Shown here: piece by piece, positions 13,811 through 62,772 of the stretch
How the letters are laid out: each line of letters begins with the position of its first letter
Numbering within the stretch: position 1 is the stretch's first letter
Assembly (NCBI GenBank): GCA_011389745.1
Contig: JAABTQ010000001.1
Location: forward strand, 16,497 to 80,496
Reading direction: 5' to 3'
DNA from: Desulfobacteraceae bacterium
GTDB taxonomy: Bacteria; Desulfobacterota; Desulfobacteria; Desulfobacterales; SKZT01
DNA length: 64,000 bases
Notes under the pieces: generated by a model
What the model was told of the DNA's origin: nothing
Database searches by the model: none
Seen by the model: only the letters and a program-made list of their open reading frames with translations
Program-made: the position numbers and the translations under genes

Positions 13811-14088
13811 GAATTTCTCCAGTTCAAATTGACTTGGGAAAAAATATTCGATTGCAGCTGTATCGTTTTAAACACTTTAGTTACTGAGAATATGAATTCC
13901 GGGCACGTTGACACTTGTATGTGTCCCTGATACGGTGCCGCTGTCTTTATTGATTTGTTCAAATTAAATTTAATTTTGATTCTGTCCTTTTAAAGAAGTT
14001 ATTTGAAGTATAGACAAAAAATTATAAAGAAATCATACTTGCAAGTCAAGAGAGTTGTCCTTATTAAACATTCTATCGCAAATATTAT

Positions 14089-33750: not shown

Positions 33751-33909
33751 ATATATATTAAAAGTTGAAGGATATACAGATCAGCACAGTAACTTGTTAG
33801 CGCTCGGCCGCTCGGACCTGGCATCAATTTGCCCATTGATTATAAAGGCGAAAAAGAATATAAAAGAGATAATATTCTTAGCATGATACTTTCTTACAGG
33901 AATCTATAA

Positions 33910-34622
33910 ATGGATAAATTACCTCTTTCTATAAATCCTTGCCCTATCATTGAAGCAATATTCGAGATTAGATTCGACCCTTCTTTTCCGGGAGATGCAA
34001 TTTTTGGAATTGTCTTCAATCAATTTAAGGACGAATTTCAGAACAATTGCCTATATTGCAGTTGCCTGCGGCGATAAGAAATCAAGATCCGAATTTGAAA
34101 TTCTCCCCACATTATAAAATAAAGAAGGATAACTTTATTATTCAGATTGGCCCAAATGTGTTTTCGTTAACGAACATTAAAGAATACTGCGGATGGAAAG
34201 GATTCTCGAAAAAAATATTTGACACATACAATAAAGTTTCAGAATTAGACTTGATAAAAAAACAATTTCGTACAGCTTTAAGATATATCAATATATTACC
34301 GGATATTAATGTCTTTGAGAAAAGCAATTTAGGTATCAAGCTTAATGATATAAGTCTTGGCGCAAACCAAATTAATTTCACGGCAGAAATTCCTTATAAA
34401 CATGGTGCCAGCAACTTAAAGTTAATAAATTTTGCCGAAGCAATTTTTGAAAATCAAGCCATAAAGGGATCAATTGTTGACATAGACACTCACGTACAAC
34501 AGGAAAAGTTTGATAACTTTAAAGACGCTGTTGAGTGCGCCCATACAACAGAAAAGGAATTATTCTTTAATTTGTTAGAACAAGAATTTCTTAATACACT
34601 GAATCCAGTCTACGAGGAATAA
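33910..34622 (+). pseudogene. TIGR04255-like protein, frameshifted
   Basis: ATG 33910 gives MDKLPLSINPCPIIEAIFEIRFDPSFPGDAIFGIVFNQFKDEFQN, a TIGR04255-type N-terminus, and stops at 34075-34077. The remainder continues in the -1 frame as ORF 34047-34622. Confidence 0.5.
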
Positions 34623-34626
34623 TGAC

Positions 34627-34926
34627 ATGCCATTATCTCAATTCAGAAATGTAGTTGGTAGTGTTACCACAGCTGCTGTTCTATGTTACTCCTATCTGGG
34701 GGCACCAGCCGCAAATCCTGTCGAATTTTATAGTCTAAATGTTCAACTTAAAGCACCAACAGAAATGAACTTTGACTATTATCAGTTAATTGACAAAGAC
34801 CAGGCTATTGCAATTGAGCAGATAGATGTGATCCACCAGTTTGCATCAAACATATTAGACAATATCAAAGACCTTGAACCTGAATTTTCTAAAACAGTAG
34901 ATGAGAATTTTTGGGATTTAATATGA
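34627..34926 (+). CDS. hypothetical protein
   Basis: 99-aa ORF starting 5 nt after the TIGR04255-like stop. Its stop overlaps the next start (ATGA). No motif recognised. Confidence 0.4.
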   Translation: MPLSQFRNVVGSVTTAAVLCYSYLGAPAANPVEFYSLNVQLKAPTEMNFDYYQLIDKDQAIAIEQIDVIHQFASNILDNIKDLEPEFSKTVDENFWDLI

Positions 34927-35360
34927 TTCCATTTGAAGAAGTCAAAAAATATCTTCCACAATATTTGTCTTCAACAGCTCAGAAAGAATTATTCAAAGAC
35001 TTAAGCCAATTTCCTCATAATATTGATCAGAGAATTTATACTTCACAATTGTCTGACCATGAAAATATTTTTCAAGGAGATGGTATACAAAACTTGCTCT
35101 ACATAAATTTACCGAGTACCGATATTGGTGAAGTACCCGGTATGATATTGTCAAATACTTGTGATATTGATCCTACCAATAAACGGTTTATGCCATTACG
35201 AATGGTATATACCCCTATTTTCAATCTTACCAAATACGAACAAACTTTGATAAAAACCCACGTTGAAACAGGAAAGAAAACAATTCAGTCAGTTAATTCT
35301 CACATCTCCGACATAAGGAAACAGTACGTCAGTCATATCTTCTATCTTCTGTTCCCATAG
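34923..35360 (+). CDS. hypothetical protein, probably 3' truncated
   Basis: MIPFEEVKKYL... with an ILSNTCDID block. The reading frame runs into the 3' end of an oppositely oriented ABC fragment at about 35330-35360. Confidence 0.35.
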   Translation: MIPFEEVKKYLPQYLSSTAQKELFKDLSQFPHNIDQRIYTSQLSDHENIFQGDGIQNLLYINLPSTDIGEVPGMILSNTCDIDPTNKRFMPLRMVYTPIFNLTKYEQTLIKTHVETGKKTIQSVNSHISDIRKQYVSHIFYLLFP

Positions 35361-35856: not shown

Positions 35857-36831
35857 ATGGAAAATATTATTTCTGGAAAATGGCTGCTTCTGGTTCATCA
35901 GATACCACCCAAACCCGATTCCTTCAGAATGAAAATATGGAGACGCTTACAACAGGTTGGAGCGGTGGCTATCAAACAATCGGTCTATGCCATGCCCTTT
36001 TCCGATCAGTCCCGTGAAGATCTGAGCTGGATTCTCAGGGAAATTATCGAAGGCGGCGGGGATGGTTCAATTATCGAGGCGCGCTTTGTGGAGGGGCTGA
36101 CGGATAAACAGGTTATCAGCCTGTTTCAAAACGCACGCAAGGCGGATTATGAAAAACTCATTCAGGATGCCGGTCTTTTGTTATCGAAGTGGTCCGCAAA
36201 GCATGACAATCCGGAAGAGCCTATGGTAAAAGGGCCGGCTCAACCGGCCAGATTGCAGCGAAGGCTGGATGAAATCGCGGCCATAGATTTTTTTAAGGCC
36301 CCGGAGCGGGGTACTGCTGAAATTCTGGTTAAAGATTTAACAGTACGTTTATCCGATGAACCATCCCTTGAGGCGGTTATTAAGGAAAGAATTGACCATA
36401 TGAAAGGAAAGATCTGGGTCACAAGGGAAAACCTTTTTGTGGACCGCATGGCCTGCGGCTGGCTTATCAGGCGCTTCGTGGACAGTGAGGCAGCTTTTAA
36501 ATTTGTCTCCGGCGCACACTATACGCCGGAAAAAGGGGAGGTCCGGTTTGATATGTTCGATGGAGAATTTACCCATGAAGGAGACCGCTGTACTTTTGAA
36601 GTCATGATTCAACGTTTTCAGCTTCAGGACAAAGCCCTGGTTACCCTGGCCGAAGTGGTACACGATATCGATTTAAAAGATGGCAAATTCGGCCGTGCTG
36701 AAACGGATGGTTTAAACGCCCTTTTGACCGGTCTGACGGCATCCCGGTCTGACGACAACCAGCGCATGGCGGAAGGCGCACAATTGTTTGAAAACCTTTA
36801 CGCATATTTTCAGCGGCACAGGGAAAGCTAA
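35857..36831 (+). CDS. chrB: chromate resistance regulator-like protein ChrB
   Basis: N-terminus WLLLVHQIPPKPDSFRMKIWRRLQQVGAVAIKQSVYAMP is the ChrB-N signature. A ChrB C-domain follows, and chrA lies downstream. Confidence 0.7.
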   Translation: MENIISGKWLLLVHQIPPKPDSFRMKIWRRLQQVGAVAIKQSVYAMPFSDQSREDLSWILREIIEGGGDGSIIEARFVEGLTDKQVISLFQNARKADYEKLIQDAGLLLSKWSAKHDNPEEPMVKGPAQPARLQRRLDEIAAIDFFKAPERGTAEILVKDLTVRLSDEPSLEAVIKERIDHMKGKIWVTRENLFVDRMACGWLIRRFVDSEAAFKFVSGAHYTPEKGEVRFDMFDGEFTHEGDRCTFEVMIQRFQLQDKALVTLAEVVHDIDLKDGKFGRAETDGLNALLTGLTASRSDDNQRMAEGAQLFENLYAYFQRHRES

Positions 36832-38100
36832 ATGAATACATCCAAAAGTATAAAGGCTCGTGCCTCCAGGCTTACCGGTTTTCTTGGACTCCAGCGAAGC
36901 ACTACCGGGCTATTGGCCATGGTGGTACTTTTAGGCATGGGCGAGCGTATGGCCGAGCGTTTCCTTCCCATTTATATGCTGGCCCTGGGCGGCGGTGTGC
37001 TGGCTATCGGTCTTCTGCAGGCCATGGACAATCTGCTGTCGGCACTCTATTCATTTCCCGGGGGTTACCTGTCTGACCGCATCGGTACCAAGAAATCGCT
37101 TTTAATTTTCAACCTGGTGGCCATGGCCGGTTTTGCCCTGGTAATTCTGATCCCCACATGGCAGGCGGTGCTGGCCGGAGCGGTGCTCTTTATTTCCTGG
37201 TCGGCCATCTCCCTGCCTGCCACCATGAGCCTGATTTACAAGGTGCTGCCCCAAAATAAGCGCACTATGGGGGTGACCATGCACTCACTGGTCAGGCGTA
37301 TCCCCATGGCGCTCGGTCCTTTGCTCGGCGGTTTATTTATCAGCCTGTGGGGTGAGCGCGATGGGGTCCGCCTGGCATTTGTCGCGGCCCTGGTCATGGC
37401 GGCAATGGCGCTGATTCTTCAGCAGATGATGATCGAAGACGACCCACGGAACAACAATGTTACATCCGATACCTGTCGTCTCACACCGGAGAAAAACCCG
37501 CTGAAGTTATTCGCATTGATGAATCCGTCCTTGAAAGGGCTGCTCGTGACCGATATTCTTATCCGGTTCTGCGAACAGATTCCCTATGCTTTTGTGGTTG
37601 TCTGGTGCATGAAGACCATTGCCGAACCTGTTTCTGCTATTCAATTCGGCATGCTGACCACTATCGAGATGGCCACGGCTGTGCTTGTGTATATTCCTGT
37701 GGCCTATCTGGCCGACCGCGGCACCAAGAAACCCTTTGTGCTCATGACCTTTGTTTTTTTCACGCTGTTTCCCCTGATGCTTCTCTACAGCCGTTCTCTC
37801 CAGTGGCTGATTGTGGCGTTTATGCTGAGAGGTCTGAAAGAATTCGGCGAGCCCACCCGGAAAGCTCTGATCATGGATTTGTCGCCCGATTCTTGCAAGG
37901 CAGGCATGTTCGGTTTGTACTACCTGATACGGGATGTCTTTGTTTCGGTCGCTGCTCTGGGTGGTGCGTTTTTATGGCAAATCAGCCCGGAAACAAATCT
38001 TGTCACCGCGTTTGTTTTCGGGGTTATCGGTACTGTGGGATTTGCAGTCTTTGGCCGCGAAATACCGGTAGCATCACCATTGCAAAAAGAAAAATCATAA
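36832..38100 (+). CDS. MFS transporter
   Basis: 422 aa, about 12 hydrophobic helices, MFS loop motif GYLSDRIGTKK between TM2 and TM3. Confidence 0.75.
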   Translation: MNTSKSIKARASRLTGFLGLQRSTTGLLAMVVLLGMGERMAERFLPIYMLALGGGVLAIGLLQAMDNLLSALYSFPGGYLSDRIGTKKSLLIFNLVAMAGFALVILIPTWQAVLAGAVLFISWSAISLPATMSLIYKVLPQNKRTMGVTMHSLVRRIPMALGPLLGGLFISLWGERDGVRLAFVAALVMAAMALILQQMMIEDDPRNNNVTSDTCRLTPEKNPLKLFALMNPSLKGLLVTDILIRFCEQIPYAFVVVWCMKTIAEPVSAIQFGMLTTIEMATAVLVYIPVAYLADRGTKKPFVLMTFVFFTLFPLMLLYSRSLQWLIVAFMLRGLKEFGEPTRKALIMDLSPDSCKAGMFGLYYLIRDVFVSVAALGGAFLWQISPETNLVTAFVFGVIGTVGFAVFGREIPVASPLQKEKS

Positions 38101-38153
38101 ATGAATCATTAATAAAACACATCGAAATCGAGCCCAAGGGAGGATGGAACACG

Positions 38154-39467
38154 ATGCGATCCAATTTGAAGCCGGTAATGACCGTGTCATTCAAGCAGGC
38201 TCTGAAATTTTGGACCAAGCTGGGTTTTATCAGTTTCGGAGGCCCTGCCGGCCAGATTGCCATCATGCACCATGAGGTGGTGGAACGACGTAAATGGATC
38301 GGTGAGAACCAATTTCTGCGGGCGCTCAACTTCTGCATGTTGCTACCCGGACCCGAAGCCCAGCAACTGGCCATCTATATCGGTTGGCGGTTGCACGGCA
38401 TATTGGGTGGTATCTCGGCCGGGGCACTTTTTGTTATCCCTTCGATATTTGTCATGCTGCTGTTAAGCTACCTGGCCGTGGCCCATATCGATATCCCGGC
38501 AGTGGCTGCGGCTTTTTACGGCATACAGCCGGTGGTCGTGGCCGTGGTGGTTGAAGCCGTGCTGCGTATCGGCAAAAAAGCGCTCAAATATTATGTGCTG
38601 TATGGATTTGCCGCTTTGGCGTTTGTCTCCATTTTCTTTTTCAAAATCCCGTTTCCCTATATTATTGTCGCAGCCGCCCTTGGAGGGTTATTCATGAGGC
38701 GCCGGCACCCCCATGCTTTTTGCAGGGGCGTTTTTGACCCACAAACCCGGGAATGCCGCATCGAAAAAGATCCAGCCAATAAAAAAAACAACACCCGTCC
38801 ATCTTTAGCCTATGTCGCACGGGTCTTTATTGTCTGTCTTGGCTTGTGGGCTGTTCCGGTTGGGGCATTATGGGCCTGGAATGGTTACCATGGCACACTG
38901 ACACAGATCGGTTTGTTCTTCACCAAGGCCGCTTTTATCACCTTTGGTGGTGCCTACGCCGTGCTCAGCTACATATCCGATGTGGCAGTGACAAGAGGTT
39001 GGCTTGCAATCGAGCAGATGCTCATCGGCCTGGGCCTTGCGGAATCGACCCCGGGTCCGCTGATCATGGTGACACAATATGTCGGTTTTCTCGGAGCCTG
39101 GAATCTGCCCGGAGAACTGAGCCCTCTGACATCGGGAATTATCGGTGCTTTAACCACGACCTATGTCACATTTTTACCCTGCTTTTTCTTTATATTCGCC
39201 GGAGCTCCCTTTATCGAAGCCATGGCCGGTAACCAGCGTCTGCAGGCTGCACTCACCGGTATCACTGCAGCGGTGGTGGGTGTGGTGCTCAACCTGGCGG
39301 TCTGGTTCGGGCACAAAGTTATTTTACCCAGTGGCAGCGTCGATTTTTTTGCCCTGACATCGGCCGTTATCTCGCTGATTCTGCTTTTGAGATTTCATTT
39401 GCCCATCCACTATCTGGTGCCAGTGGGTGCTATGACGGGAGTGATTTGGCAAACAATGATTCCATAA
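38154..39467 (+). CDS. chrA: chromate ion transporter ChrA (duplicated CHR domains)
   Basis: AAGGGAGGA RBS then ATG 38154. FISFGGPAGQIAIMH and a second-half ITFGGAYAVLSY motif. The ORF-track extension back to 37605 overlaps the MFS gene out of frame and is not credible. Confidence 0.85.
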   Translation: MRSNLKPVMTVSFKQALKFWTKLGFISFGGPAGQIAIMHHEVVERRKWIGENQFLRALNFCMLLPGPEAQQLAIYIGWRLHGILGGISAGALFVIPSIFVMLLLSYLAVAHIDIPAVAAAFYGIQPVVVAVVVEAVLRIGKKALKYYVLYGFAALAFVSIFFFKIPFPYIIVAAALGGLFMRRRHPHAFCRGVFDPQTRECRIEKDPANKKNNTRPSLAYVARVFIVCLGLWAVPVGALWAWNGYHGTLTQIGLFFTKAAFITFGGAYAVLSYISDVAVTRGWLAIEQMLIGLGLAESTPGPLIMVTQYVGFLGAWNLPGELSPLTSGIIGALTTTYVTFLPCFFFIFAGAPFIEAMAGNQRLQAALTGITAAVVGVVLNLAVWFGHKVILPSGSVDFFALTSAVISLILLLRFHLPIHYLVPVGAMTGVIWQTMIP

Positions 39468-44684: not shown

Positions 44685-45409
44685 GATTTTTAATGCCTCT
44701 TTAAAATGGCCATAGGCCTATCAACCAAGCAATGTTTAATGGGTATTTATTGACGACTATAAACTTAAATCCGACTCACCGCAACCCTCATGATATCCAA
44801 AACATCAAATCCCGTTACATCTTTTGATCACTTTTTATTCCAGATTCCGGCCTTTACCACCCTTTTTATGAAGCCTTGCTCCCTGAGTGTTTTACTGCAA
44901 ATTTTTTCAGGTTCTGCCGGGATGCCTCCGGTTTGCATAAAGCCTATAAACCTCGGACAAATCTACAAGTTCTTGTATGTATCGCACTCTGGAAGACCTT
45001 CTTTTGCGCATCAATAACCAAGAAATCAAGATCCCTTAATAATTTTTCGTGAAGAGCATAACTTTCAGACATGATCCAAGGTGAGCGGGTGCGGTATTCA
45101 AAACCGCACCCGGAAACCGGTGGGCCGCTTTGAAGCGGAAAATTCAATAGGATGGATAAAGTAATTTACTTAAAGGTGCAGAAGATCGACTACAAAAGCA
45201 AATCCTCGCATTATCTAATCCGGAGGTTTGCTCTTAAGAAACAACAACAACAATCAGGAAATTTTTTGGCTTCCTTTGTAGACTTATATCGAAATCACAT
45301 GTTAGGCGCCAAAAAATTTAAAGAGTTCGTTTATCTGAGGTTATCCCAAAAGTCAAGATAAATTTTGGGAAATAAAAAATATATTGAACCAGACAGTCCA
45401 AGGTTCTTT

Positions 45410-45488
45410 GTCATGCCGGACTTGCTCGGGCATCCAGAAAAACCAGCTTCTTGAATCCACCTGGATTCCGGCCTCCGCTGGAATGACG
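45410..45488. repeat. pair of inverted REP-like hairpin elements
   Basis: The first copy is gtcatgccggacttgctcgggcatccag. A 23-nt spacer separates it from the second copy, ctggattccggcctccgctggaatgac(g). The second copy is the reverse orientation of the 24408-24436 element. Confidence 0.65.
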
Positions 45489-45493
45489 ATACA

Positions 45494-45616
45494 AAAAGAA
45501 GGATTTTCATGCAGGATTTCAATCAGTTGTTCGGCTTTTGGACGCAAACCGGCGGCGCATAGCTTTTTGGCGTCTCTTTGGGCCTGTTTTGTGAAAACGA
45601 CCTGCCACATTATCAA
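45494..45616 (-). pseudogene. Txe/YoeB-family toxin relic (N-terminal half only)
   Basis: MWQVVFTKQAQRDAKKLCAAGLRPKAEQLIEILHENPSF matches the N-terminal half of Txe/YoeB-type toxins as I recall them. The frame then runs into the hairpin repeat (translated ...VIPAEAGIQ...). No antitoxin gene fits upstream. Confidence 0.5.
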
Positions 45617-45774
45617 TCAAGTTCCCGGGTACCTCAAAAAAAATCATGCATGATCGACAACCTTTCTTGCACCCTTAGAGGGAATATGCGAACCTTATAA
45701 AAACAGGCTTCCAATTCGCTCGGAACCTCAAGTACCATCCTGGAGCACCAAATGATGATATCGGCAAATTTCCC

Positions 45775-48714
45775 ATGGGTATGACGATGGATTACAAGGA
45801 ATTACTCGAAAAATATAATATACTTTTGGAGGAAGCAGATCGCTTAACAAAAGAAAACATTCAATTGAAAGCACAACTTGGACTATCGAAATCAGAGCTT
45901 TCCCGAAATACTGCCTCTGCAATAAATTCAGAAAAATGTATACCTGACGATAAACCGACAGACAGAAACTGTTTTTCAGATGTGGACAGCCAATCGGATA
46001 CTATCTCCAAGATCGGTCTGTTCAAGTCACTTTTCAAAGGCCGTGATGATGTCTACGCGAAACGATGGGAAAATAAGAATAAGGGGACATCGGGTTATTC
46101 ACCTGTTTGTCTGAATCAGTGGCAAACAGGGATATGCGGCAAACCAAAAATGTCCTGTTCCAAATGCGAACACAAGTTGTATGCCGCTTTGGATAAAGAT
46201 GTCGTTGAGAATCACCTGAGAGGAAATATTGTTGTAGGCATCTATCCAATGCTTCCGGATGAAACGTGCTGTTTTTTGGCAATGGATTTTGACGAAGCAG
46301 ACTGGCAAAATGATATCGCTGTTTTCAGAAATGTTTGCATCGAGTTCAATATTCCTGTTGCTGTCGAACGGTCCCGGTCCGGAAAAGGCGGTCATGTTTG
46401 GTTTTTCTTTGAAAATTGGGTTTCGGCTGCTTTGGCACGCAAATTCGGCACTGCCCTGCTTACCTGTTCCATGAGCAGAAGACATGAAATCCGGTTTAAA
46501 TCATATGACAGGCTGTTTCCCAGTCAGGACACCATGCCCAGAGGTGGTTTAGGAAATTTGATTGCACTGCCCCTGCAAAAAGCGGCAAGAGAAAACGGTA
46601 ACAGCGAATTTACCGATGAAAAATTTCGATCCTATTCTGACCAATGGGCATTCTTGTCCACAATCCAGAAAATATCCGTAAACCGTCTTGAAAATCTCAT
46701 TATGGATCTTTGTCCTGGTCATGAACTGGGAGTTTTAAAAATCGACGAGGAAGAGGAAAAACCCTGGGTATCGAATAAAGAAAAAATCCCACTGCAAAAA
46801 ATTGATTTTCCGAAGCAACTGGACATTGTTAAAGCAAATATGCTTTTTATTCCAAAGGCAATGATTTCCCAAAGGGCGCTGAACAGGTTAAAACGGCTCG
46901 CGTCTTTTAAGAACCCGATGTTTTACAAACAGCAAGCCATGCGTTTACCGACTTATGGGCATTCAAGAGTCGTCTCCTGCGCAGATGAAACCAAAAATTA
47001 CCTGTGTGTGCCAAGAGGATGCGAGTCTGAATTGTCCCATGAACTTGAAGAACTCGGAATTGATATTCGGTTTATTGACAAAACTTATAGCGGGAAATGG
47101 ATTGATGTGGAATTCAACGGACAACTCAGAGATGAACAATCCTTGGCTCTCAGAGCCCTGATGCAGCATGATACCGGAATACTTTCAGGCACAACAGCCT
47201 TTGGTAAAACAATTGTGGCAATTAAGCTGATTGCCGAGAAAAAAGTAAATACCCTGATCCTGGTTGACAAGGTCACACTGCTGTCGCAATGGAAAGAAAA
47301 GCTGTCGGAATTTCTGGTTGTAAATGAACCATTGCCGGAACAGCCTGCTGCCAGAGGCAAGAAAAGGGGACGAAAGAGGGAAATAAGGGTTATCGGTCAA
47401 TTGGGCGCAGGTAAAAATGCGTTAAGCGGTATTGTGGATATTGCCGTAATGCAATCGCTGAGCCGAAAGGGAGAGGTCAAACAATGCGTTAAAAATTACG
47501 GCATGATCATTGCCGATGAATGTCATCATGCTTCAGCATTTACCTATGAACAAATTCTGAAAACCGCCCATGCGAAATATATCTATGGTCTGACCGCCAC
47601 ACCGACAAGGAAAGATGGGCATCATCCGATTCTGTTCATGCATTGCGGTCCCATTCGATATCGGGATAATCCCAAAAAACAAGCGGAGAAGAGACCCTTT
47701 GACCACTATATCGTTCCGCGATTTACCTCTTTAAGGGTTCCTGTGAACAGCGATGAAAATGATCTGTCTATCCAGGATTTATATACCGAAATCATGGATA
47801 ACGACTTCAGGAATCAACAAATTATCGAAGATGTGCTGAAAAATTATCATCAAGGCAGAAACTGCATTGTTCTATCGCTCAGAACCGCCCATGTTGAATT
47901 GCTTGCCAAGAAATTAAAGGAAGAAGTTCCGGATGTCATAACAATGATGGGCGGTATGGGAAAAAAAACAACGCAGGCGGTTTTTCAACACCTCACCGAT
48001 ATTCCTGATGACAAAAATATCATCCTGGTGGCTACCGGTCATTTTATCGGGGAAGGTTTTGACGAGCCACGCCTTGATACGCTGTTTTTAGCCATGCCGA
48101 TATCATGGAAAGGCACGCTGCAGCAATACGCCGGGAGGCTTCACCGGCTGTTCAAAACGAAAAAAGAAGTGCGAATCTATGACTATGTAGATATCCAGGT
48201 AAAGGTGATGGAAAAAATGTATCAAAAACGGTTAAATGGATATGCATCGATGGGATATAAAGCCAAAGGCGAGGAAAACATGAATTCGTCTTTGGATATC
48301 ATTTTTAATAAAGATAATTTTTTACCGATTTTCAATCAGGATATCCTTTCCGCTAAAAAAGAGATTGTCATCGTAAGCCCGTTTGTCAGGAAAAAACGCA
48401 CCCACCAAATGATGCAACACCTGAAAATCCAAACCGCCAAAAATATCCGCGTTATAGCCGTAACCCGGCCTAAAGAGGATTTTACACCGAAAGATCATGC
48501 CGCCTTGCAAAATACGCTGAACCTGCTGACAAGTAACGGAGTAAGTATCGTTTTTAAATCAAATATCCACCAGAAATTTGCAATCATGGATCAAACGGTT
48601 GTGTGGTATGGCAGCATCAATCTTTTAAGCTATGGAGGCGCACAGGAAAGCATCATGCGAATTGAAAGTTCCAATATTGCGAATGAATTAATGAAAAGCA
48701 TGGGAGGTGCATAA
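45775..48714 (+). CDS. fusion protein: coiled-coil + Cys cluster + AEP primase-polymerase + SF2 (DEAH, ResIII-like) helicase + PLD-family (HKD) nuclease
   Basis: AEP motifs LAMDFDEADW (DxD 46285-46293) and RSGKGGHVWFFF (46381-46401). Helicase Walker A GTTAFGKT (47188-47211), DECH (47515-47526), GLTATP and QQYAGRLHR. C-terminal HQKFAIMD...GSINL (HxKxxxxD 48568-48591). The true start may be ATG 45784 or 45790. Confidence 0.8.
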   Translation: MGMTMDYKELLEKYNILLEEADRLTKENIQLKAQLGLSKSELSRNTASAINSEKCIPDDKPTDRNCFSDVDSQSDTISKIGLFKSLFKGRDDVYAKRWENKNKGTSGYSPVCLNQWQTGICGKPKMSCSKCEHKLYAALDKDVVENHLRGNIVVGIYPMLPDETCCFLAMDFDEADWQNDIAVFRNVCIEFNIPVAVERSRSGKGGHVWFFFENWVSAALARKFGTALLTCSMSRRHEIRFKSYDRLFPSQDTMPRGGLGNLIALPLQKAARENGNSEFTDEKFRSYSDQWAFLSTIQKISVNRLENLIMDLCPGHELGVLKIDEEEEKPWVSNKEKIPLQKIDFPKQLDIVKANMLFIPKAMISQRALNRLKRLASFKNPMFYKQQAMRLPTYGHSRVVSCADETKNYLCVPRGCESELSHELEELGIDIRFIDKTYSGKWIDVEFNGQLRDEQSLALRALMQHDTGILSGTTAFGKTIVAIKLIAEKKVNTLILVDKVTLLSQWKEKLSEFLVVNEPLPEQPAARGKKRGRKREIRVIGQLGAGKNALSGIVDIAVMQSLSRKGEVKQCVKNYGMIIADECHHASAFTYEQILKTAHAKYIYGLTATPTRKDGHHPILFMHCGPIRYRDNPKKQAEKRPFDHYIVPRFTSLRVPVNSDENDLSIQDLYTEIMDNDFRNQQIIEDVLKNYHQGRNCIVLSLRTAHVELLAKKLKEEVPDVITMMGGMGKKTTQAVFQHLTDIPDDKNIILVATGHFIGEGFDEPRLDTLFLAMPISWKGTLQQYAGRLHRLFKTKKEVRIYDYVDIQVKVMEKMYQKRLNGYASMGYKAKGEENMNSSLDIIFNKDNFLPIFNQDILSAKKEIVIVSPFVRKKRTHQMMQHLKIQTAKNIRVIAVTRPKEDFTPKDHAALQNTLNLLTSNGVSIVFKSNIHQKFAIMDQTVVWYGSINLLSYGGAQESIMRIESSNIANELMKSMGGA

Positions 48715-48925
48715 CCTCGCATATGGGTCGTTAGTGTATGGAATTGGGATTGAATGTGGGAAGGAATTTGAATCATATTCGAAGTTATCCGATTGCGATA
48801 TATTAGAATAAAATTCATGTTATCCATGTGGAGAAATCAGAAATGATCAAGATATTTCTTGTGAATCTATTTTTTTTAAAGTAATTTATCAGAAACTTTA
48901 TAATAACTTGTTCGGCAAGCAAGAA

Positions 48926-49231
48926 ATGATCGAGTCTCGGAACTGGAAAGAAGAGAATCAGCGGATAGCTCAAGGTCTGCAGAAGGTTGCTCGGCCGCCT
49001 CGCTGGAGTGAGCGGGCATACTGCATTCTTGAGAGAGACCTCATGCTGAGCTCCTTTATGCTTTGGAGCCTTATCGAACTGCACAAGGTTTCGCGGCGAA
49101 CCAGTGACCAGATATTGTGCGTATTCTCATACAAGGTGGTTGGAAAGAACGTCAATCGACTGAACGGGCATCACATCTGGGATCTCTACGATATGGAGCA
49201 AGAACGACTAGAACAAAAGAAGCCTTTGTAG
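48926..49231 (+). CDS. hypothetical protein (possible cassette ORF)
   Basis: Longest ORF in this segment, with the same orientation as the downstream attC-like site. Antisense ORFs compete for the same DNA. No motif recognised. Confidence 0.25.
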   Translation: MIESRNWKEENQRIAQGLQKVARPPRWSERAYCILERDLMLSSFMLWSLIELHKVSRRTSDQILCVFSYKVVGKNVNRLNGHHIWDLYDMEQERLEQKKPL

Positions 49232-49283
49232 GTCGCATCAGTTTATTCATGCGTATACAAGTTTTTTTGAAAAAGACGAGAGC

Positions 49284-49457
49284 ATGAACTGGAGCGATGT
49301 TTTTGTGGTTGCGGATTTCGACAGAAAAGATTGCATCTGGCGCGTTCCCGTTGTGGAAATTCGTAGGTTGTTCCTGATGGCGGCAGGTGATTACCCGCAC
49401 GTAACCCGAATGGTGTTCAACGGAAAGAAGGGCGATTACGACATTGAGACGAACTGA
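49284..49457 (+). CDS. small hypothetical protein (57 aa)
   Basis: ATG-to-TGA ORF MNWSDVFVVADFDRKDCIWRVPVVEIRRLF..., ending 20 nt before the attC-like site. It is below the ORF-track length cutoff. Confidence 0.3.
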   Translation: MNWSDVFVVADFDRKDCIWRVPVVEIRRLFLMAAGDYPHVTRMVFNGKKGDYDIETN

Positions 49458-49476
49458 ATTGCGGTTGCGCAAGAAT

Positions 49477-49548
49477 GCCGAACAAAGCGCTCCAACCGAC
49501 CGCTCAACCGCTGCGCGGTCTCGCGTCGGCTGAGCGCTAGCGTTCGCC
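49477..49548 (+). other. attC-like integron recombination site (72 bp)
   Basis: The site reads GCCGAAC-aaagcgctccaaccgac...gtcggctgagcgct-agc-GTTCGCC. It is an imperfect palindrome with unpaired bases. The left end resembles the class-1 attC left arm (RYYYAAC...CAAGCCGAC), and the right end has a GTT core. Confidence 0.6.
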
Positions 49549-49569
49549 GGATTAAAAAGGTAAACTAAA

Positions 49570-49830
49570 ATGCCTGAGATCAGTAGGTTTTATGGTATAA
49601 TCATTGCTATGTTTTTCGATGATCACAACCCGCCGCATTTTCATGCACGGTATGGCGGGGAGAAGGTGGCAATAGAAATAGATTCACTTCGGATTCTGGA
49701 AGGTCATTTTTCGCCCCGTGCGTTAGGTCTTGTAATCGAATGGGCCGTTCAGCACAGGGATGAGCTTCGACAAAACTGGGAATTAGCGAAAATCAATCAG
49801 CCACCAAATAAAATTGAACCGTTGAAATAA
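49570..49830 (+). CDS. DUF4160 family protein
   Basis: MPEISRFYGIIIAMFFDDHNPPHFHARYG is the DUF4160 signature. Confidence 0.8.
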   Translation: MPEISRFYGIIIAMFFDDHNPPHFHARYGGEKVAIEIDSLRILEGHFSPRALGLVIEWAVQHRDELRQNWELAKINQPPNKIEPLK

Positions 49831-49842
49831 GGGAGGTGAGTC

Positions 49843-50154
49843 ATGCTAAGGGATGTAATCTCAGCAAATTATAAGGGCGAATATAAAATTGAAATAATAT
49901 TTGAGGATGGTGCCTCCGGGATTGTCGATTTCTCAAAATATTTACTTGAAGGCGGGGTATTTGATAAATTCAAGGATGTTGAATTTTTCAAGAACTTTAA
50001 AATTAATGAGGAACTCGGAGTACTGACCTGGGGAGATGAAATCGATATTGCACCGGAAACACTTTATTCTGAGGCAACGAACTCGCCTCTGCCTGAATGG
50101 ATGAATTCACAGCAAGGTTCGCTGGCGAACATGTCGCTTCAGCCGACCTCGTAA
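49843..50154 (+). CDS. DUF2442 family protein
   Basis: KIEIIFEDGASGIVDF...GVLTWGDEIDIAPETLY pattern of DUF2442. It is the usual partner of DUF4160. Confidence 0.8.
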   Translation: MLRDVISANYKGEYKIEIIFEDGASGIVDFSKYLLEGGVFDKFKDVEFFKNFKINEELGVLTWGDEIDIAPETLYSEATNSPLPEWMNSQQGSLANMSLQPTS

Positions 50155-50181
50155 ACTCGGCGGTTGAGCTTTTCGTTATGC
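50124..50181 (+). other. attC-like integron recombination site (58 bp)
   Basis: The site reads GGCGAAC-atgtcgcttcagccgacctcg-taaa-ctcggcggttgagc-ttttc-GTTATGC. It has the same architecture as 49477-49548 and overlaps the 3' end of the DUF2442 ORF. Confidence 0.55.
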
Positions 50182-50228
50182 GCTACTACTAAAGAAATGA
50201 TTCAGAATTTAGGAAAGGGAGTTCTACC

Positions 50229-50750
50229 ATGTTCATTGCTGAGCCGACACTGGATGTATTTCTCCGAGGGCTGGTCCTGACCTCACTTGCCATGGTCTGG
50301 GTTGTGATGCTTGTGCGCGTGAATGGGTTAAGGTCGTTTTCGAAAATGACGAATTTCGACTTTGTTATGACGGTGGCGGTGGGGTCTTTGCTTGCGGGCG
50401 CGAGCCAATCAACAAATTGGAATGCCTTCGCACAAACGCTTTCAGCCATGGCTACCTTGTTCCTCGTACAATATCTGTCCGCGCGGCTCCGCAAAGCTTC
50501 AAACACGTTCAAAACGCTTGTGCAAAACAGTCCAGTCGTGCTGATGCGCGACGGAGTGATAATCCACGAGGCGCTTACCAATACACGCGTCGCAAAAGAC
50601 GATCTGATCGCCAAGCTTCGCGAGGCAAACGTTCTTGACCTGTCTCAGGTTCGCGCGGTTATACTGGAAACGACTGGCGATGTTTCGGTGCTTCACGGGG
50701 ATGTGTGCTCAGAGGAATTGTTGCAGGGAACCAAGCGCATCGATCGGTAG
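50229..50750 (+). CDS. DUF421 (YetF-like) membrane protein
   Basis: Two to three N-terminal TM helices, then ...LVQNSPVVLMRDGVIIHEALTNTRVAKDDLIAKLREANV..., typical of YetF/DUF421. AAAGGGAG RBS. Confidence 0.7.
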   Translation: MFIAEPTLDVFLRGLVLTSLAMVWVVMLVRVNGLRSFSKMTNFDFVMTVAVGSLLAGASQSTNWNAFAQTLSAMATLFLVQYLSARLRKASNTFKTLVQNSPVVLMRDGVIIHEALTNTRVAKDDLIAKLREANVLDLSQVRAVILETTGDVSVLHGDVCSEELLQGTKRIDR

Positions 50751-51138
50751 ACAGCAAGTTCCGCCGATGTTCATTCTTCGTTCTTCCCTGCTTACCAGGC
50801 ACGTGCCCAAGCTGAAACAGACAACTTAATTGAGAGAGGCCGGCTACCAAGTCATATCCCAAATCAGCAAAAGACAATACGACATCTAACAATCTTGATA
50901 TCAACATCTCGGAAGGTGAATTCCGGTATTACCCGAAAGAAACAAATGAGTTTCTGAAACATCTGACTTCACATTCTGTTCAGGAACCGAAGATTTATCG
51001 TTGGAAAGTCTTCATAGCAAAACAGAAGATGGAAGGGTATAATGCCTTCGAATATACCGCTGAAGAAACAGGCTGGGTGTTTCTGGTAAATGCCGGCACA
51101 GGCCATGTCCGATAAAGGTAAGACCATAGGAGGAAATT

Positions 51139-52368
51139 ATGAAGCACAAAAAAACAAGGGCGAGGCACGTCATAGTTGCGGTCTTGTTGGTAGCAGCTTT
51201 TGTCGATTTCAACCTCGGCCGGTCAACCTCGGCGGAGGACAGCGAACTCCGGATAAACCCCACAGTGGTGATGTCGGGACTTAGCGACCCGTGGGATCTG
51301 GCGTTTGCGCCCGACGGAGCCATGCTGTTTACTGAAAAATGCCGTGGGCTGTCCGTGCGTACCTCTAACGGGACGGTCCGGCGTTTGTTCGGAACTGCCG
51401 GCGCCGCCCTGGAGGCGGACGACTTTTTCTGCCAGAGCCAAAGCGGCATGCTGGGCGTTGCGCTCGATCCGACGTTTGCCGAAAACCGTAGCGTATACGT
51501 CTATATGGCCTCAAATATGGGCAAGGCCAAAACCAACCGCGTCGTGCGCCTTACCGTTGATGAAGCCTACACCGCCGTTTCCAATCGTAAAGACATTGTC
51601 ACCGACATTGCGTTTAAACAATCCTCCAACCGATGGGGCGGCGCAGGTGCGCATAGCGGCGGCCGCATTCGCTTCAGCCCATTTGACGGTTACCTGTATG
51701 TCACCACCGGTGACAACCACAACGGGCCCCTTCCCCAGGACCTTTCCCGCCTGGGAGGCAAGATATTGCGGATCGACCGCAACGGCAAGGCCCCGAATGG
51801 CAACAATACACCGTCGGGAGGTGATCCTCGCATCTTTACCTATGGACATCGCAATGTGCAGGGCATTGCCTTTCACCCCGGCACCGGCCAACCGTTTGCC
51901 AGTGAACACGGCCCGGGCCATAATGATGAAGTTACGCCGCTTACAGCAGGAGGCAACGGCGGCTGGGACCCCGCACCCACAAAAGGGGTAACATGCCCGA
52001 GCGATTATTGCGGTTATACGTCCAATAAGCCCGACGGCTCACCGACGCCCATGACAGATCTATCCCGATTCCCCGACGCGCTCAAACCATCTTGGAACAA
52101 CCGCGGCGTTTCCGAAGGGATGGGGCCGTGTGTCTTTCTGGAAGGGTCACACTGGAAAGCCTGGGAGGGCCGTCTGGCGGTCGGATTTCTCCGTGGCGCG
52201 CGCATCGAGCTTTTGCAGATGGATGCGATCGGCATGACAACCAAAGCAACCACCGTCCCCGATCTGCCGGCGCAACGTATACGCTCTCTTGTTTTGGGTC
52301 CGGACGGCGCACTTTATGTCGCCACCGACGCCGGCGAAATCTGGCGACTCAAAAGCGCCGGAAAATAA
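51139..52368 (+). CDS. PQQ-dependent sugar (aldose/sorbosone) dehydrogenase, secreted
   Basis: Signal peptide, then beta-propeller motifs GMLGVALDP, TYGHRNVQGIAFHP and EHGPGHNDEV. Visibly G+C-rich. Confidence 0.8.
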   Translation: MKHKKTRARHVIVAVLLVAAFVDFNLGRSTSAEDSELRINPTVVMSGLSDPWDLAFAPDGAMLFTEKCRGLSVRTSNGTVRRLFGTAGAALEADDFFCQSQSGMLGVALDPTFAENRSVYVYMASNMGKAKTNRVVRLTVDEAYTAVSNRKDIVTDIAFKQSSNRWGGAGAHSGGRIRFSPFDGYLYVTTGDNHNGPLPQDLSRLGGKILRIDRNGKAPNGNNTPSGGDPRIFTYGHRNVQGIAFHPGTGQPFASEHGPGHNDEVTPLTAGGNGGWDPAPTKGVTCPSDYCGYTSNKPDGSPTPMTDLSRFPDALKPSWNNRGVSEGMGPCVFLEGSHWKAWEGRLAVGFLRGARIELLQMDAIGMTTKATTVPDLPAQRIRSLVLGPDGALYVATDAGEIWRLKSAGK

Positions 52369-59919: not shown

Positions 59920-62772
59920 TTAACTTGCCTTGTTTGCCTTGTCCTGTATCTCTCGGACCAATCGGATAAAATGGTTAAGAACGGGGTCTTGGGATTCCTT
60001 TTCGAGCAAGTCAATATGAATTAAGTCATATATATTGAACCAGTCATCTTGAATCGCAATCTGTAGATTTGGATTGATAATGTAGCGGCCTCTTTCAATC
60101 CGGACAAAAAGTTTTCGGTTATAGGGATCTTGACGATTGATTTCGTTTTTAGAAAGAATGGCGGACAGATATGGCCGTTTTTTACGATATTCCGCTATGA
60201 CGTGATTTGGAAAATACTGAAGGGCTGAAAGAAAAGTGGCGGTTTCAAAAGAAGGGGTTTTCCAACGGGTCTCGTTCCGCAAAAGATCTTGCAACTGGGC
60301 AAGCATTGAATTCAACAGAAAAAATTCCATGAGTTTATTGTCGATTTTGATCATTTTCTTTTCCACTTTTACCTTGATGCTGGAAGGTGAAAGATCGGCA
60401 TAAATCCGTCCGATACTATCCCTGGCAAAAAAGTCATATCGATATGCCTGACGCAAAGCGATCTGAAGGGGGGTTCGTCCCCAGTTATCAGTCAGTTTGC
60501 AATTGGCCCCGTTGCCGATAAGCCATTTCACAAGCTCCTCCATGCCTAATTGAGCAGCTATCATCAAGGGTGTTTGATTGAAAGGATTGCGGAAATTCAC
60601 GCCGTAGGTTTCGACTTTTTTCTTGATCTCCGTCAGCTTTTTACCCTGATAATCCAAATGATACTTGTTTTCGATGGAGGCCCTGAATTTTTCAGGATCT
60701 TTTGCGGGATTGAACTTCAATGCTGCCAGGGATTCGAAAAGTTCAGGAACCTGATGCAACACCGCAAAATCAAAAAGGAGTTGCTTGGCTTTACGATTAT
60801 AATGTTTCGGATCAAGGGCCTCTTTTTTCAGCGAATCAATGTTTTGAGGTGTCATGATTTTCCACGGCACCTCTTTTTGGGCTAGTATGGTTCTGCGAAT
60901 TTCTTCAGCCTGTTCGTTTTTACCCTGTAATTCGAGCCGATGAGCTTCCTCTTGCCATTCTCCGGAAGTGGACACCTGAGAAACAACTTTGATATCGCCG
61001 GACCTGGTGGTAAGCCCCATAAGGGAAAACAGGCGGTGGTTCGGGTTGTTTTCGATTATGTAAACATTGGTGATACCCCGTGTAATGGCTACATAAAGGG
61101 CGTTGATAAAAAATTTATAGGCTTCCAGAGATTTGTCTTCCTTGTCTCTAGCCCGGGCGTATTTAAGTTCATGCGTGAGATCTCCGGAGTTGACACCTTC
61201 AATGATGGCATTGAATTCAAGAGTGTGACTTGAAACAAAATTAAGCAAAATAATGTTATCATATTCCAACCCCTTAACTTCATGGATGGCAAACAAAAGC
61301 GGTGTTTTGAAAAATGCGCGCGCCACCTTTTTATCTTCAGAGCGCATAACAATTACCGCTGTTCGGGCGGAACGACCGGTTTTTGAATTAAGCTCCTGCT
61401 TGGTCTTGTCCTTATCTGCCAGAAAATCGATGTCTCCTTTTGTTTCAGAAACACATCGCACCAGATAGTTGCTCTCCCGGTCAATGGATCCAAAACGAGC
61501 GTTTTTGATCAACAGCAAACGATTGGCAAGATCAGTTACGGATAATGAGTTGCGGTAATTGGCGTTTAGAACCCTGATGATTTCTCTGTACCTGTCACCT
61601 CCTTTTTCAGATCCACCTTTGGCACGCTGCTCATAAAACATCGATTTTACGGACGACCAGGAAAAGAAATTGGGATGCACAATCTGGTTGGCATCACCAC
61701 AGAGCACATAATTATTTCTGAATCTCAACATCGTTAGAATCAGCTGGATTTGTATATTTGTAAGATCCTGGACTTCATCAGCCACCACAAAATCATATTT
61801 CGGACGGCACAATCGGACATAATCGTAAGAAACCATGTTAGGTGAATAAAACTTGTTATTTTTTAAAAAATCGAGATATTTTTCAAAAATATCATAAACC
61901 GCCTCACGATCACTGTGTAAAAAAATCGACCTTCGCACACCAAGATTCAGATAGTCAGAGCGACCAAGAATGGCACGATCCACGGGATAGCCTGTCAACA
62001 CCCCGTTAAATTCTTCGTAAAGCTGATGGGTATTTTTAATGGGAGCATGATGCTTATAGCGCTCAAACCACCGTTCAAATTCCATGTAGTTGATTTCACG
62101 GCCTTCAGGTACTCGAATTGTTTCCAAAAGCTCTTTGAAGGAGAGAAAATCGATACTCTGGCGATCATTTTCGTAGTCATTGGAATAATAAAGACTTCGC
62201 GCGTTTTCAGCCAGGTAAGGCGAAAGGGTGACATACAAGATATCGCCTGCCAGGTGTTTCAGTTTTTCCAGGGTAAGCACTGTTTTGCCACTGCCAGCCG
62301 ATCCAATCACAATCAGTGGAGGACTGAGATTGAAAATCTCATGCTGAATATCATCAAATGAGATAATTTTGTCCAAAAGGTGAAAATCGGATCGCTCCGG
62401 ATTCCTGTAAACCAAAGGGGTTAGATCCCCAGTGGGTATTTGTGCGGTAGAAAAATTAAAATCAATCTTGTCTTCATCGATTTGGGCACCTCTAAGAAAC
62501 CGTGATTTTTCATAAGCATGATTTTTGATTATTTCCAACAAAAGGATGCAGCAGGACTCATTATAGCGTCCAAGGGTAAAAAGCAGACGATCCCTGCTGC
62601 TAAGTTTTGCTCTGTAATAACGGGTGCCTTTAAGTTTTTTTACATCAGCGGCACTGAAGTCGCCGGCTTGAAGCAGGCCCACAACCTTATCCAACTGTTT
62701 TGAAAGTCCCTTGGGATCCATTTCATTATATCTAAGAATTTCCATTAAATTTGTCATTTCTTTATTTTCCAA
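59920..62772 (-). CDS. SF1 (UvrD/AAA_30-like) helicase with RelE/ParE-like N-terminal domain and C-terminal ankyrin repeats
   Basis: N-terminus VKKLKGTRYYRAKLSSRDRLLFTL...CILLLEIIKNHAYEK. Walker A GSAGSGKT (62281-62304), Walker B FVVADEVQDL, LCGDANQ, NYRNS, HEVKGLEYDNIILL and LYVAITRG. Ankyrin-type repeats ...TPLMIAAQLGMEELVKWLIGNGANCKLTDNWGRTPLQIAL. Confidence 0.75.
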   Translation of the reverse strand: MENKEMTNLMEILRYNEMDPKGLSKQLDKVVGLLQAGDFSAADVKKLKGTRYYRAKLSSRDRLLFTLGRYNESCCILLLEIIKNHAYEKSRFLRGAQIDEDKIDFNFSTAQIPTGDLTPLVYRNPERSDFHLLDKIISFDDIQHEIFNLSPPLIVIGSAGSGKTVLTLEKLKHLAGDILYVTLSPYLAENARSLYYSNDYENDRQSIDFLSFKELLETIRVPEGREINYMEFERWFERYKHHAPIKNTHQLYEEFNGVLTGYPVDRAILGRSDYLNLGVRRSIFLHSDREAVYDIFEKYLDFLKNNKFYSPNMVSYDYVRLCRPKYDFVVADEVQDLTNIQIQLILTMLRFRNNYVLCGDANQIVHPNFFSWSSVKSMFYEQRAKGGSEKGGDRYREIIRVLNANYRNSLSVTDLANRLLLIKNARFGSIDRESNYLVRCVSETKGDIDFLADKDKTKQELNSKTGRSARTAVIVMRSEDKKVARAFFKTPLLFAIHEVKGLEYDNIILLNFVSSHTLEFNAIIEGVNSGDLTHELKYARARDKEDKSLEAYKFFINALYVAITRGITNVYIIENNPNHRLFSLMGLTTRSGDIKVVSQVSTSGEWQEEAHRLELQGKNEQAEEIRRTILAQKEVPWKIMTPQNIDSLKKEALDPKHYNRKAKQLLFDFAVLHQVPELFESLAALKFNPAKDPEKFRASIENKYHLDYQGKKLTEIKKKVETYGVNFRNPFNQTPLMIAAQLGMEELVKWLIGNGANCKLTDNWGRTPLQIALRQAYRYDFFARDSIGRIYADLSPSSIKVKVEKKMIKIDNKLMEFFLLNSMLAQLQDLLRNETRWKTPSFETATFLSALQYFPNHVIAEYRKKRPYLSAILSKNEINRQDPYNRKLFVRIERGRYIINPNLQIAIQDDWFNIYDLIHIDLLEKESQDPVLNHFIRLVREIQDKANKAS

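Follow-up and report, generated by a model that had tools for sequence, protein, structure and literature searches.

Several described systems share parts with the gene considered here, which lies at 45775-48714 on the forward strand of a 64,000-nucleotide stretch of a Desulfobacteraceae genome (contig JAABTQ010000001.1; the whole of this stretch is referred to as the window) and which encodes an archaeo-eukaryotic primase (AEP) domain, a helicase and a phospholipase D (PLD)-type nuclease on a single polypeptide. MpCAPP is a DNA-dependent DNA primase-polymerase (Prim-Pol) that uses dNTPs and is inactive when its DxD motif is mutated. A 'CAPP-Helicase' type has also been defined, with Prim-Pol plus helicase being the most prevalent architecture among relatives outside CRISPR loci (Zabrady et al. 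2021, PMC8211822), and these non-CRISPR relatives are typically located within mobile and transposable elements (PMC8211822). The name TOTE is an acronym of TPR, OB, TBP, Effector (PMC12458937, citing Aravind, Iyer and Burroughs 2022). DRT7, or PPRT, is a defence protein that combines a Prim-Pol with a reverse transcriptase, and the DxD motif of its CAPP-like Prim-Pol is required for anti-phage activity, which shows that this type of AEP domain can serve immunity through DNA synthesis.

The protein encoded in the window is arranged in the order coiled coil, Cys4-containing AEP Prim-Pol, XPB/UvsW-like superfamily 2 (SF2) helicase and single-HKD PLD domain, and is apparently a full-length, functional and stand-alone member of the AEP-TOTE / CAPP_A-helicase family. 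Judged by analogy, it would work most like a helicase-nuclease machine of the XPB-Bax1, SauUSI or MkoC type to which a Prim-Pol has been added. We propose a role in nucleic-acid conflict, most likely in host defence against invading or replicating foreign DNA, as a tentative reading to which we give slightly less than an even chance. The AEP domain's curated name, the RefSeq naming and the toxin-antitoxin (TA) and abortive infection (Abi) genes that neighbour the close homologues are all in line with a conflict role.

Domain order and active sites

The open reading frame (ORF) is uninterrupted over 979 codons and its product is about 110 kDa. Three ATG codons lie close together at its beginning, of which M5 (45787) is probably the true start, because it is conserved and invariant in the close-orthologue alignment and because the DNA similarity to many loci starts there. 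The first-pass annotation had described five elements in one protein and had claimed that the catalytic motifs are intact; both claims held when the motifs were recomputed from the sequence, and every motif that it had listed was recovered at its original position. The features of the gene, with positions in amino acids (aa) where these apply, are as follows.

45793-45906, + strand: long N-terminal helix (aa 7-44), coiled-coil-like in the AlphaFold (AF2) model, with a weak match to the HALZ leucine zipper
46009-46695, + strand: AEP (Prim-Pol) domain of AEP-TOTE / CAPP_A type (aa 79-307), matching PF22548 at E=8.1e-101
46108-46167, + strand: Cys4 cluster C112, C121, C128 and C131, CLNQWQTGICGKPKMSCSKC, an insert within the AEP domain
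46285-46293, + strand: AEP motif I, DFD (D171/D173)
46375-46410, + strand: AEP motif II stretch, RSGKGGHVWFFF, with H207 at 46393-46395
46501-46521, + strand: AEP motif III, SYDRLFP, with D245 at 46507-46509
46810-47115, + strand: middle alpha/beta domain (aa ~346-447), AF2 local confidence ~91-97
47116-48252, + strand: XPB/UvsW-like SF2 helicase core (aa ~448-826), matching ResIII, DEAD and Helicase_C
47188-47211, + strand: helicase Walker A, GTTAFGKT
47515-47526, + strand: helicase DECH
47593-47604, + strand: helicase TATP
47608-47616, + strand: R612-K613-D614 where XPB has its 'RED' motif; R and D are nearly invariant
48124-48147, + strand: helicase motif VI, QYAGRLHR
48298-48699, + strand: PLD-fold domain (aa ~842-975) with one intact HKD motif
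48568-48591, + strand: PLD motif HQKFAIMD, H932-x-K934-x4-D939
48610-48624, + strand: PLD motif GSINL, G946-S-x-N949

The AF2 model, calculated for a monomer from a diverse alignment of 57 homologues, has a mean predicted local distance difference test (pLDDT) score of 89.6 and a predicted template-modelling score (pTM) of 0.83, and this high pTM suggests that the domains pack into a single body, as in an integrated machine. The modelled order is a long N-terminal helix, a disordered linker, the AEP domain, the middle alpha/beta domain, two RecA-like lobes and the C-terminal PLD fold. At the N-terminus pLDDT is 82-93 at aa 10-30 and below 50 at aa 38-66, with the disordered linker spanning aa 45-75. 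A structure search of the Protein Data Bank (PDB) and a viral structure library found no single protein with the whole architecture.

The identity of the AEP domain, which had still to be checked against profiles, is clear: it matches the AEP-TOTE model PF22548 at 336.9 bits, far above the cut-off of 27, over profile positions 2-229 of 230. It also matches the PADLOC PrimPol profile PDLC01465, labelled CRISPR-associated (E=2.1e-93), and the NCBIfam CAPP A1 model NF040561 (E=1.3e-26), the latter at 93 bits and so below the equivalog cut-off of 200 bits. With Marinitoga CAPP the domain shares the DxD, sxH and GGLGNLIxxPL motifs, a sequence match to PDB 7nqd (E=3e-10) and the fold (TM ~0.8; Foldseek TM 0.78-0.80 on CAPP), and the active-site motifs align residue by residue to 7nqd/7nqf. 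It differs in that the Cys4 insert, the N-terminal coil and the PLD domain are unmentioned in the description of CAPP-Helicase, and in that CRISPR arrays and cas genes are lacking: the 64 kb contain no tandem or CRISPR-like repeats, and no cas families occur among the annotated neighbours. The CRISPR link implied by the PADLOC label was rejected for this reason. The Cys4 insert occupies a stretch that has no counterpart in CAPP, and each of its cysteines is conserved in 52 of the 57 diverse relatives used for residue-level alignment, pointing to a probable zinc-binding site.

The helicase core matches ResIII at aa 450-612 (E=2.4e-21) and Helicase_C at aa 683-792 (E=6.7e-06), both above the curated thresholds. 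By sequence it matches XPBII (E=3e-19), and the top Foldseek matches are XPB, UvsW and RadD. SF2 motifs I, II, III and VI and an XPB-like structure are all present, while the XPB equivalog NF045503 is matched at 54 bits against a cut-off of 610 and the RED motif reads R-K-D. The middle domain gave no profile match in a Pfam search of aa ~346-447; matches to the phrog_16 DNA helicase and to phage helicases start at aa ~405-409. This domain is possibly equivalent to the N-terminal accessory (damage-recognition) domain of XPB/UvsW. Within the first helicase lobe a Lys/Arg-rich loop, AARGKKRGRKREIRV (aa ~521-548; 47335-47418), is modelled with low confidence, contains the invariant residues G532 and R533, and may be an element that contacts DNA.

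The PLD region, whose profile match was likewise in need of checking, hits PLDc_2 over aa 855-975 (E=3.6e-11, 43.5 bits against a cut-off of 27). It carries the single-HKD signature HxK(x)4D(x)6G(S/G)xN as H932-Q-K934-FAIM-D939 ... G946-S-I-N949, and in the AF2 model its beta and alpha elements alternate. H932, K934, D939 and N949 are invariant in the window's protein and 24 close orthologues.

A codon analysis against 30 intact homologues gave a ratio of nonsynonymous to synonymous change (dN/dS) of 0.11 overall, with 0.09 for the AEP domain, 0.076 for the helicase and 0.118 for the PLD domain. Since the ratio is low in each, all three enzymatic domains are kept by purifying selection in this clade. 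The N-terminal helix is the least constrained region (0.32); it is a candidate dimerisation element.

Among systems that pair a motor with a nuclease, XPB-Bax1 is similar in this pairing and in that the best structural and sequence matches of our motor are XPB and UvsW / T5 D10-type helicases; it differs in that its nuclease, Bax1, is a protein apart, where the nuclease here is a PLD domain of the same polypeptide, and in that a Prim-Pol is added here. The PLD region (aa 833-969) matches the C-terminal nuclease region of MkoC from Mokosh type II (E=8.6e-13), whereas the helicase is of another family, so that the match to Mokosh is confined to the PLD region. The helicase matches the type IV restriction profile mREase_IV of PADLOC (5.8e-12) and PDB 7clg (1e-5), which is labelled in the database only as 'Putative helicase' and which we take to be SauUSI. 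With type IV restriction and MkoC the protein would have in common an ATP-driven motor and a dimerising single-HKD nuclease, the dimer being putative here. Unlike those systems it has no modification-reading domain, and its AEP polymerase is not found in their other members. The likeness to DISARM that the first-pass annotation had drawn is weak (DrmC E=8.4e-4; DrmD 6.4e-3 and 0.1), the PLD domain being closer to MkoC and the helicase to the type IV mREase and XPB, and no DISARM genes were found among the neighbours. DRT7/PPRT has a reverse transcriptase and a large C-terminal region in place of the helicase and nuclease, and its likeness is one of domain type and not of direct sequence comparison.

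Close homologues and the surroundings of the gene

The set of close homologues comprises 57 genome loci, mostly from metagenome-assembled genomes (MAGs) of Desulfobacterales, at 58-84% identity. DNA similarity to these loci is limited to 45773-48717, which coincides with the ORF boundaries, and the flanks are unrelated even at 84% identity. To describe the neighbourhoods we took 290 proteins (+/-10 kb), of which 150 are encoded no more than three genes away from the AEP gene and the other 140 lie beyond. The commonest near neighbours are AbiEii (8), AbiEi (7), a DUF4143 AAA ATPase (5) that we take to be the PADLOC candidate PDC-S01, DDE transposases (5), PIN (4) and Fic (3), while the distal flanks hold varied housekeeping genes. 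Integrases, relaxases, type IV secretion systems (T4SS), Rep and partition proteins were absent from the frequent families among the 290 proteins, as were ligase and Ku. In our reading the gene is carried in a small, horizontally exchanged accessory islet.

The same survey bears on the idea that the gene is a component of a canonical multi-gene TOTE system with its partners nearby. The AEP domain matches the TOTE-named Pfam model, RefSeq uses the name, and an effector carrying a TOTE-type AEP domain (PF22548) is the feature shared with such systems. The partner genes are what differ. No TPR, OB/cold-shock or TBP family occurs within 10 kb on either side of the gene in the window or among the 25 most frequent families of the 290 neighbour proteins, and no TPR, OB or TBP gene was found in the annotated plasmid or E. 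coli contexts of more distant relatives. Canonical TOTE membership at this locus is largely refuted, and we regard it as very improbable.

The most regular association is with AbiE. In eight of the 42 loci with enough upstream sequence, AbiEii is the gene immediately upstream and abuts or overlaps the start of AEP. The divergences of AbiEii and AEP track each other (Spearman 0.75, from only six loci with full genes and pairs that are not independent), with identities of, for example, 92/95, 91/90 and 73/73%, and in one locus (L048) the AbiE genes are of another lineage, at 40-46% identity. This suggests that the association is recurrent and that AbiEi, AbiEii and AEP form a heritable module of three genes, seen in about a fifth of the close relatives. 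AbiE remnants were sought upstream of the gene in the window and none were found.

Structural disruptions in the form of deletion, insertion or truncation were identified in six loci (L033, L046, L049, L052, L054, L057); split ORFs in long-read MAGs, which are possibly sequencing frameshifts, were left out of this count. Three genomes contain a second copy or fragment (L031/L046, L038/L053, L044/L055). On the Desulfosarcina variabilis chromosome the full copy L031 and the 5' fragment L046 (aa 1-476) lie ~22 kb apart and the same 230-aa ORF precedes each, which suggests a segmental duplication. In L033 the PLD region is interrupted at 12528-13871 by an insert of ~1.3 kb carrying a 344-aa ORF on the opposite strand. 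Contigs end inside the gene in ~14 of the 57 loci; this was not used as evidence of repetitiveness, as short metagenomic contigs give the same pattern.

In the window the gene sits in a patch whose GC content is 0.43, that of the flanks being about 0.48-0.53, and it has TA-type genes to either side. The accessory location proposed by the first-pass annotation is thus borne out, as is its view that the gene has no partner genes in the window. The flank on one side contains a P-type ATPase, a FemAB-like gene, a multihaem cytochrome and chromate-resistance genes, and that on the other a glucose/sorbosone dehydrogenase, a zinc peptidase and a catalase. No Rep, partition or other replication genes lie near the gene. 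The features nearest to it are listed below.

45353-45616, - strand: truncated toxin relic, TIGR02116 E=0.025 over profile positions 1-34 of 80
48740-51114: variable segment downstream, with small unmatched ORFs, a hairpin, a TA pair and a YetF-like gene
49570-49830: DhiT-like toxin gene (DUF4160, Pfam), NCBIfam DhiT E=6.6e-22, below the equivalog cut-off
49843-50154: DhiA-like antitoxin gene (DUF2442, Pfam), NCBIfam DhiA 6.1e-07, below the equivalog cut-off
50229-50750: YetF-like gene (Pfam)

The upstream ORF had been read as a repeat-truncated relic of a YoeB-like toxin. Its ~40 N-terminal residues are Txe/YoeB- or RelE-like and correspond to the N-terminal third of the Txe/YoeB profile, so that this part of the reading stands, with a weak match; the remainder is unrelated sequence, and a Pfam search with the whole ORF gave no match. 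A GC-rich inverted repeat at ~45453-45481 lies inside the unrelated part and occurs once in the window. Downstream, the 97%-identical relative L145 matches 45657-48739 and then 51115-52133. Because L145 goes from 48739 straight to 51115, the 2.4 kb at 48740-51114 represents an indel of its own, and the position of the AEP gene does not differ between the two strains. No clear repeats or target duplications mark the indel junctions.

The idea that attC-like cassettes follow the gene did not hold up. The only significant hairpin, at 49478-49545, is an imperfect GC-rich palindrome which, taken as single-stranded DNA, folds better than shuffled sequences do (z=-3.0), and it alone lends support to the attC-like remark. 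At the candidate site 50120-50200 folding is at background level, and the 116 nt after the stop codon fold no better than shuffles (z=+0.98). No attC series is present, and an integron cassette was rejected on the basis of attC folding alone, an integron integrase not having been sought: there is no attC-like structure after the stop codon and the sole significant hairpin is ~760 nt further on. A scan of the islet with Rfam for an RNA partner gave only a sub-threshold chance match inside the coding region, the sole tRNA that could mark an insertion site is ~14 kb away, and promoter and terminator scans returned counts at background level.

These data also bear on whether the gene is a self-mobilising, single-gene selfish element that copies and moves itself by means of its own nuclease, helicase and polymerase. 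Such an element would fit with DNA similarity that is limited to the ORF, with several copies or fragments in some genomes, and with contexts that differ between close relatives. A search around the gene for terminal repeats, inverted or direct, and for a target-site duplication found neither, and L145 has the gene in the same place with the same downstream gene once the indel is discounted. Similarity limited to the ORF is to be expected of any conserved gene at 70-85% identity, and an active nuclease is absent from most of the family. We therefore give this explanation almost no weight.

Elsewhere in the window three regions are worth recording. A gene at 59920-62772 (- strand) encodes a 950-aa protein in which UvrD/PhoH-like helicase signatures are combined with ankyrin repeats, an unusual pairing for a bacterium. 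A chromate-resistance module at 35857-39467 (ChrB regulator, MFS transporter and ChrA-type chromate transporter) lies upstream of the multihaem cytochrome gene. Four ORFs of 149-240 aa without Pfam match occupy 32303-35360, which has the lowest GC of the window (0.37-0.41), is near a tRNA-Asn at 31151, and may be another accessory patch.

The wider family on plasmids and islands

The first-pass annotation had left the family unplaced. There is in fact a dedicated Pfam model, a RefSeq name and a published class of Prim-Pol plus helicase fusions. Its remark that it knew of no experimental characterisation agrees with the literature searched here. The Desulfosarcina alkanivorans P0109 orthologue is 76% identical, with the same full architecture and length, and carries, like the E. 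coli relatives, the RefSeq product name 'TOTE conflict system archaeo-eukaryotic primase domain-containing protein'. By sequence and architecture the gene belongs to a large family that has already been catalogued computationally and is built in the same way as the named RefSeq orthologues.

The family is found in many phyla. A word-indexed search gave 7,888 clusters (90% identity) at E<=1e-10; the best 120 of these, mostly from Desulfobacterales and 73-97% identical, all share one architecture. When the 50%-identity representatives were searched exhaustively, there were 2,468 clusters at E<=1e-30, the best 150 of which score at least 532 bits, with most spanning both the AEP and helicase parts. 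Two main forms occur, one of ~970 aa that reaches the PLD domain and one of ~790 aa that stops after the helicase. In phage genomes only the helicase part was matched.

Conservation was counted in 129 diverse representatives, each 740 aa long or more. Of these, 121 have kept the whole AEP tetrad D-D-H-D, and helicase residues K478/D581/E582 are present in 125. In the PLD domain, by comparison, the H, K and D of the motif are intact in eight; the fold is kept with substituted His/Lys in 77, and the domain is absent from the other 44. In the residue-level alignment H932 is retained in 9 of 57 relatives and K934 in 15. A neighbour-joining ordering places intact PLD forms in among degenerate ones, the simplest reading of which would be repeated loss of the PLD active site. 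DNA cutting cannot be the core activity of the family, because most relatives have lost the PLD catalytic residues or the whole domain. On the pattern of conserved residues the core would be priming or polymerisation together with ATP-driven DNA remodelling, with DNA cleavage as a clade-specific addition retained here. The argument from the nuclease to a degrading immunity effector is correspondingly weakened, the PLD His/Lys being lost in most of the family and the domain being absent in a third of it.

The relatives without a PLD domain are found in other settings than the close homologues. They occur in 201 plasmid records, 96 of them conjugative. On pSinB the gene is near traA/traC/traD/traG, DUF736, a zincin (ArdC-like) protein and a ParB-like protein, and on pSMR4r-1 it is beside strawberry-notch helicases and integrases; gene sets of this kind are typical of the early-entering establishment region of conjugative elements. 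The Pantoea copy is adjoined by IncFII RepA. In E. coli a PLD-less relative (WP_000233452, ~44% identity over the AEP and helicase core) is present in 876 of 5,426 complete genomes (16%). In E. coli O157:H7 MB41-1 (L141, chromosome 3411797-3438163) the relative follows an integrase, a helix-turn-helix (HTH) regulator, DUF3987/YfjI and an inovirus-type Gp2, placing it at the integrase end of an island that also contains urease genes. The plasmid and E. coli forms of AEP-TOTE protein thus differ from the window's protein in having no PLD domain. A conserved small upstream partner of the PLD-less forms was considered and rejected, as the Gp2-like protein of E. coli is not related to the ORF that lies upstream in Massilia.

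Full-length homologues at 42% identity are carried by a conserved element that also encodes tyrosine integrases, a MobA/VirD2 relaxase, DUF3408 and an HTH protein of excisionase type, and from this gene content are inferred to be Bacteroidales-type. In the IMG/VR contigs of this mobilisable element (L062-L069), same-strand genes for an HTH/sigma-70 region 4-like protein and a DUF3307 membrane protein always precede the AEP-helicase-PLD gene, and the pair could be a lineage-specific partner module.

There is therefore a split in context between chromosomal mini-islets for the close homologues and plasmid or island backbones for the PLD-less relatives. The first-pass annotation had named embedding in the replication modules of plasmids or prophages as a finding that would speak against a conflict role; this embedding is not seen around the close homologues and is seen in part among the distant PLD-less relatives on conjugative plasmids and islands.

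The split is central to the principal alternative, in which the protein is an establishment or replication factor of mobile elements that primes and unwinds element DNA, for example by making the complementary strand on transferred single-stranded DNA or by origin-independent restart. The copy in the window would then be cargo or a stranded remnant, and the PLD domain an accessory module for DNA binding, dimerisation or nicking. This explanation accounts better than defence for the conserved core, in which Prim-Pol and helicase are kept and the nuclease is dispensable in most lineages, and for the contexts on plasmids and islands: the tra genes of pSinB and integrases of pSMR4r-1, the gene order in the O157:H7 island, the integrases and MobA relaxase around the Bacteroidales-type homologues, and the mobile elements to which non-CRISPR relatives are assigned (PMC8211822). 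It fits less well with the lack, within 10 kb on either side of the close homologues and of this gene, of genes for an integrase, relaxase, T4SS, Rep or partition protein, or with an HKD nuclease that is intact and invariant in this clade. The elements concerned have Rep proteins of their own, such as the IncFII RepA beside the Pantoea copy. To our knowledge, moreover, XPB/UvsW-type SF2 motors are not replicative helicases. Taking both sides together, we consider a role in establishment possible but on the whole unlikely.

A role in DNA repair or damage tolerance is suggested by the motor itself. The protein could be an XPB-Bax1-like helicase-nuclease that has gained a Prim-Pol for repriming, translesion synthesis or end joining, analogous to LigD/PrimPol or Pol theta. 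The best matches of the motor are the repair helicases XPB (including XPB-Bax1 complexes), UvsW and RadD, and purifying selection is strong (dN/dS 0.11). AgaPP, a related Prim-Pol of mobile elements, carries out translesion synthesis and microhomology-mediated end joining and raises survival after damage, and the PrimPol-RT protein PPRT is reported to contribute to an oxidative-damage response as well as to defence. The distribution of the gene is nevertheless patchy and accessory, with variable contexts, disrupted copies, and TA/Abi and transposase neighbours in place of repair operons. The relative in E. coli, confined to that 16% of genomes, is always in islands, and ligase and Ku are missing from the frequent neighbours. 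Repair is in our view improbable.

Proposed function and significance

Host defence was ranked first because the close homologues lie in TA/Abi-rich mini-islets with the AbiE linkage and with no mobile-element backbone around them, and because the nuclease is intact, the PLD and helicase domains resemble Mokosh and type IV restriction, and DRT7 provides a precedent. In the mechanism that we envisage, the protein would dimerise through the N-terminal helix and/or the PLD domain, since each active site of a single-HKD PLD is made up from two copies. The XPB-like motor would load on duplex or branched DNA and open or track it, and on the single strand so exposed the Prim-Pol would prime and extend with dNTPs in the manner of MpCAPP. 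The DNA being processed would, in this clade, be cut by the PLD dimer. The protein would act alone in this genome, and as part of the AbiEi-AbiEii-AEP three-gene module in about a fifth of close relatives.

A bolder form of the defence reading is that the protein is a self-contained 'unwind, copy, cut' immune effector in which synthesis by the Prim-Pol is part of immunity, that the AbiE-linked loci represent an undescribed three-gene defence module, and that PLD decay elsewhere reflects a switch from degradative immunity to immunity by synthesis or DNA remodelling. We offer this as speculation that is unlikely to be correct.

Several points weigh against a role in defence. The PLD catalytic residues or the domain are lost across most of the wider family, and the plasmids, islands and integrative mobilisable elements that carry relatives fit a function on the side of the element. 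TA/Abi neighbours mark any variable islet and are hence unspecific for defence, and the AbiE correlation comes from a small, non-independent sample. A strict test for TOTE failed, there being no adjoining TPR(-OB/cold-shock) or TBP gene here or among the frequent neighbours of close homologues. Finally, no experimental work on any member of this architecture was found in the literature searched.

Three of the observations made here are not stated in the literature read: the decay or absence of the PLD domain across the family as against its retention here, the co-inherited AbiEi-AbiEii linkage, and the split in context. The family is large, is present in tractable hosts and carries a label that is computational only, so that its appeal is as an object for experiment and not as a system of a new kind. 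The copy in the window is useful in this respect, as it is among the minority in which all three active sites are intact and so suits the separation of activities by point mutation. A functional test would decide between defence, the establishment of mobile DNA and repair. The result would add to the few immune or mobile-element mechanisms known to depend on DNA synthesis, and an assigned function would reach thousands of genes that are annotated as "DEAD/DEAH box helicase".

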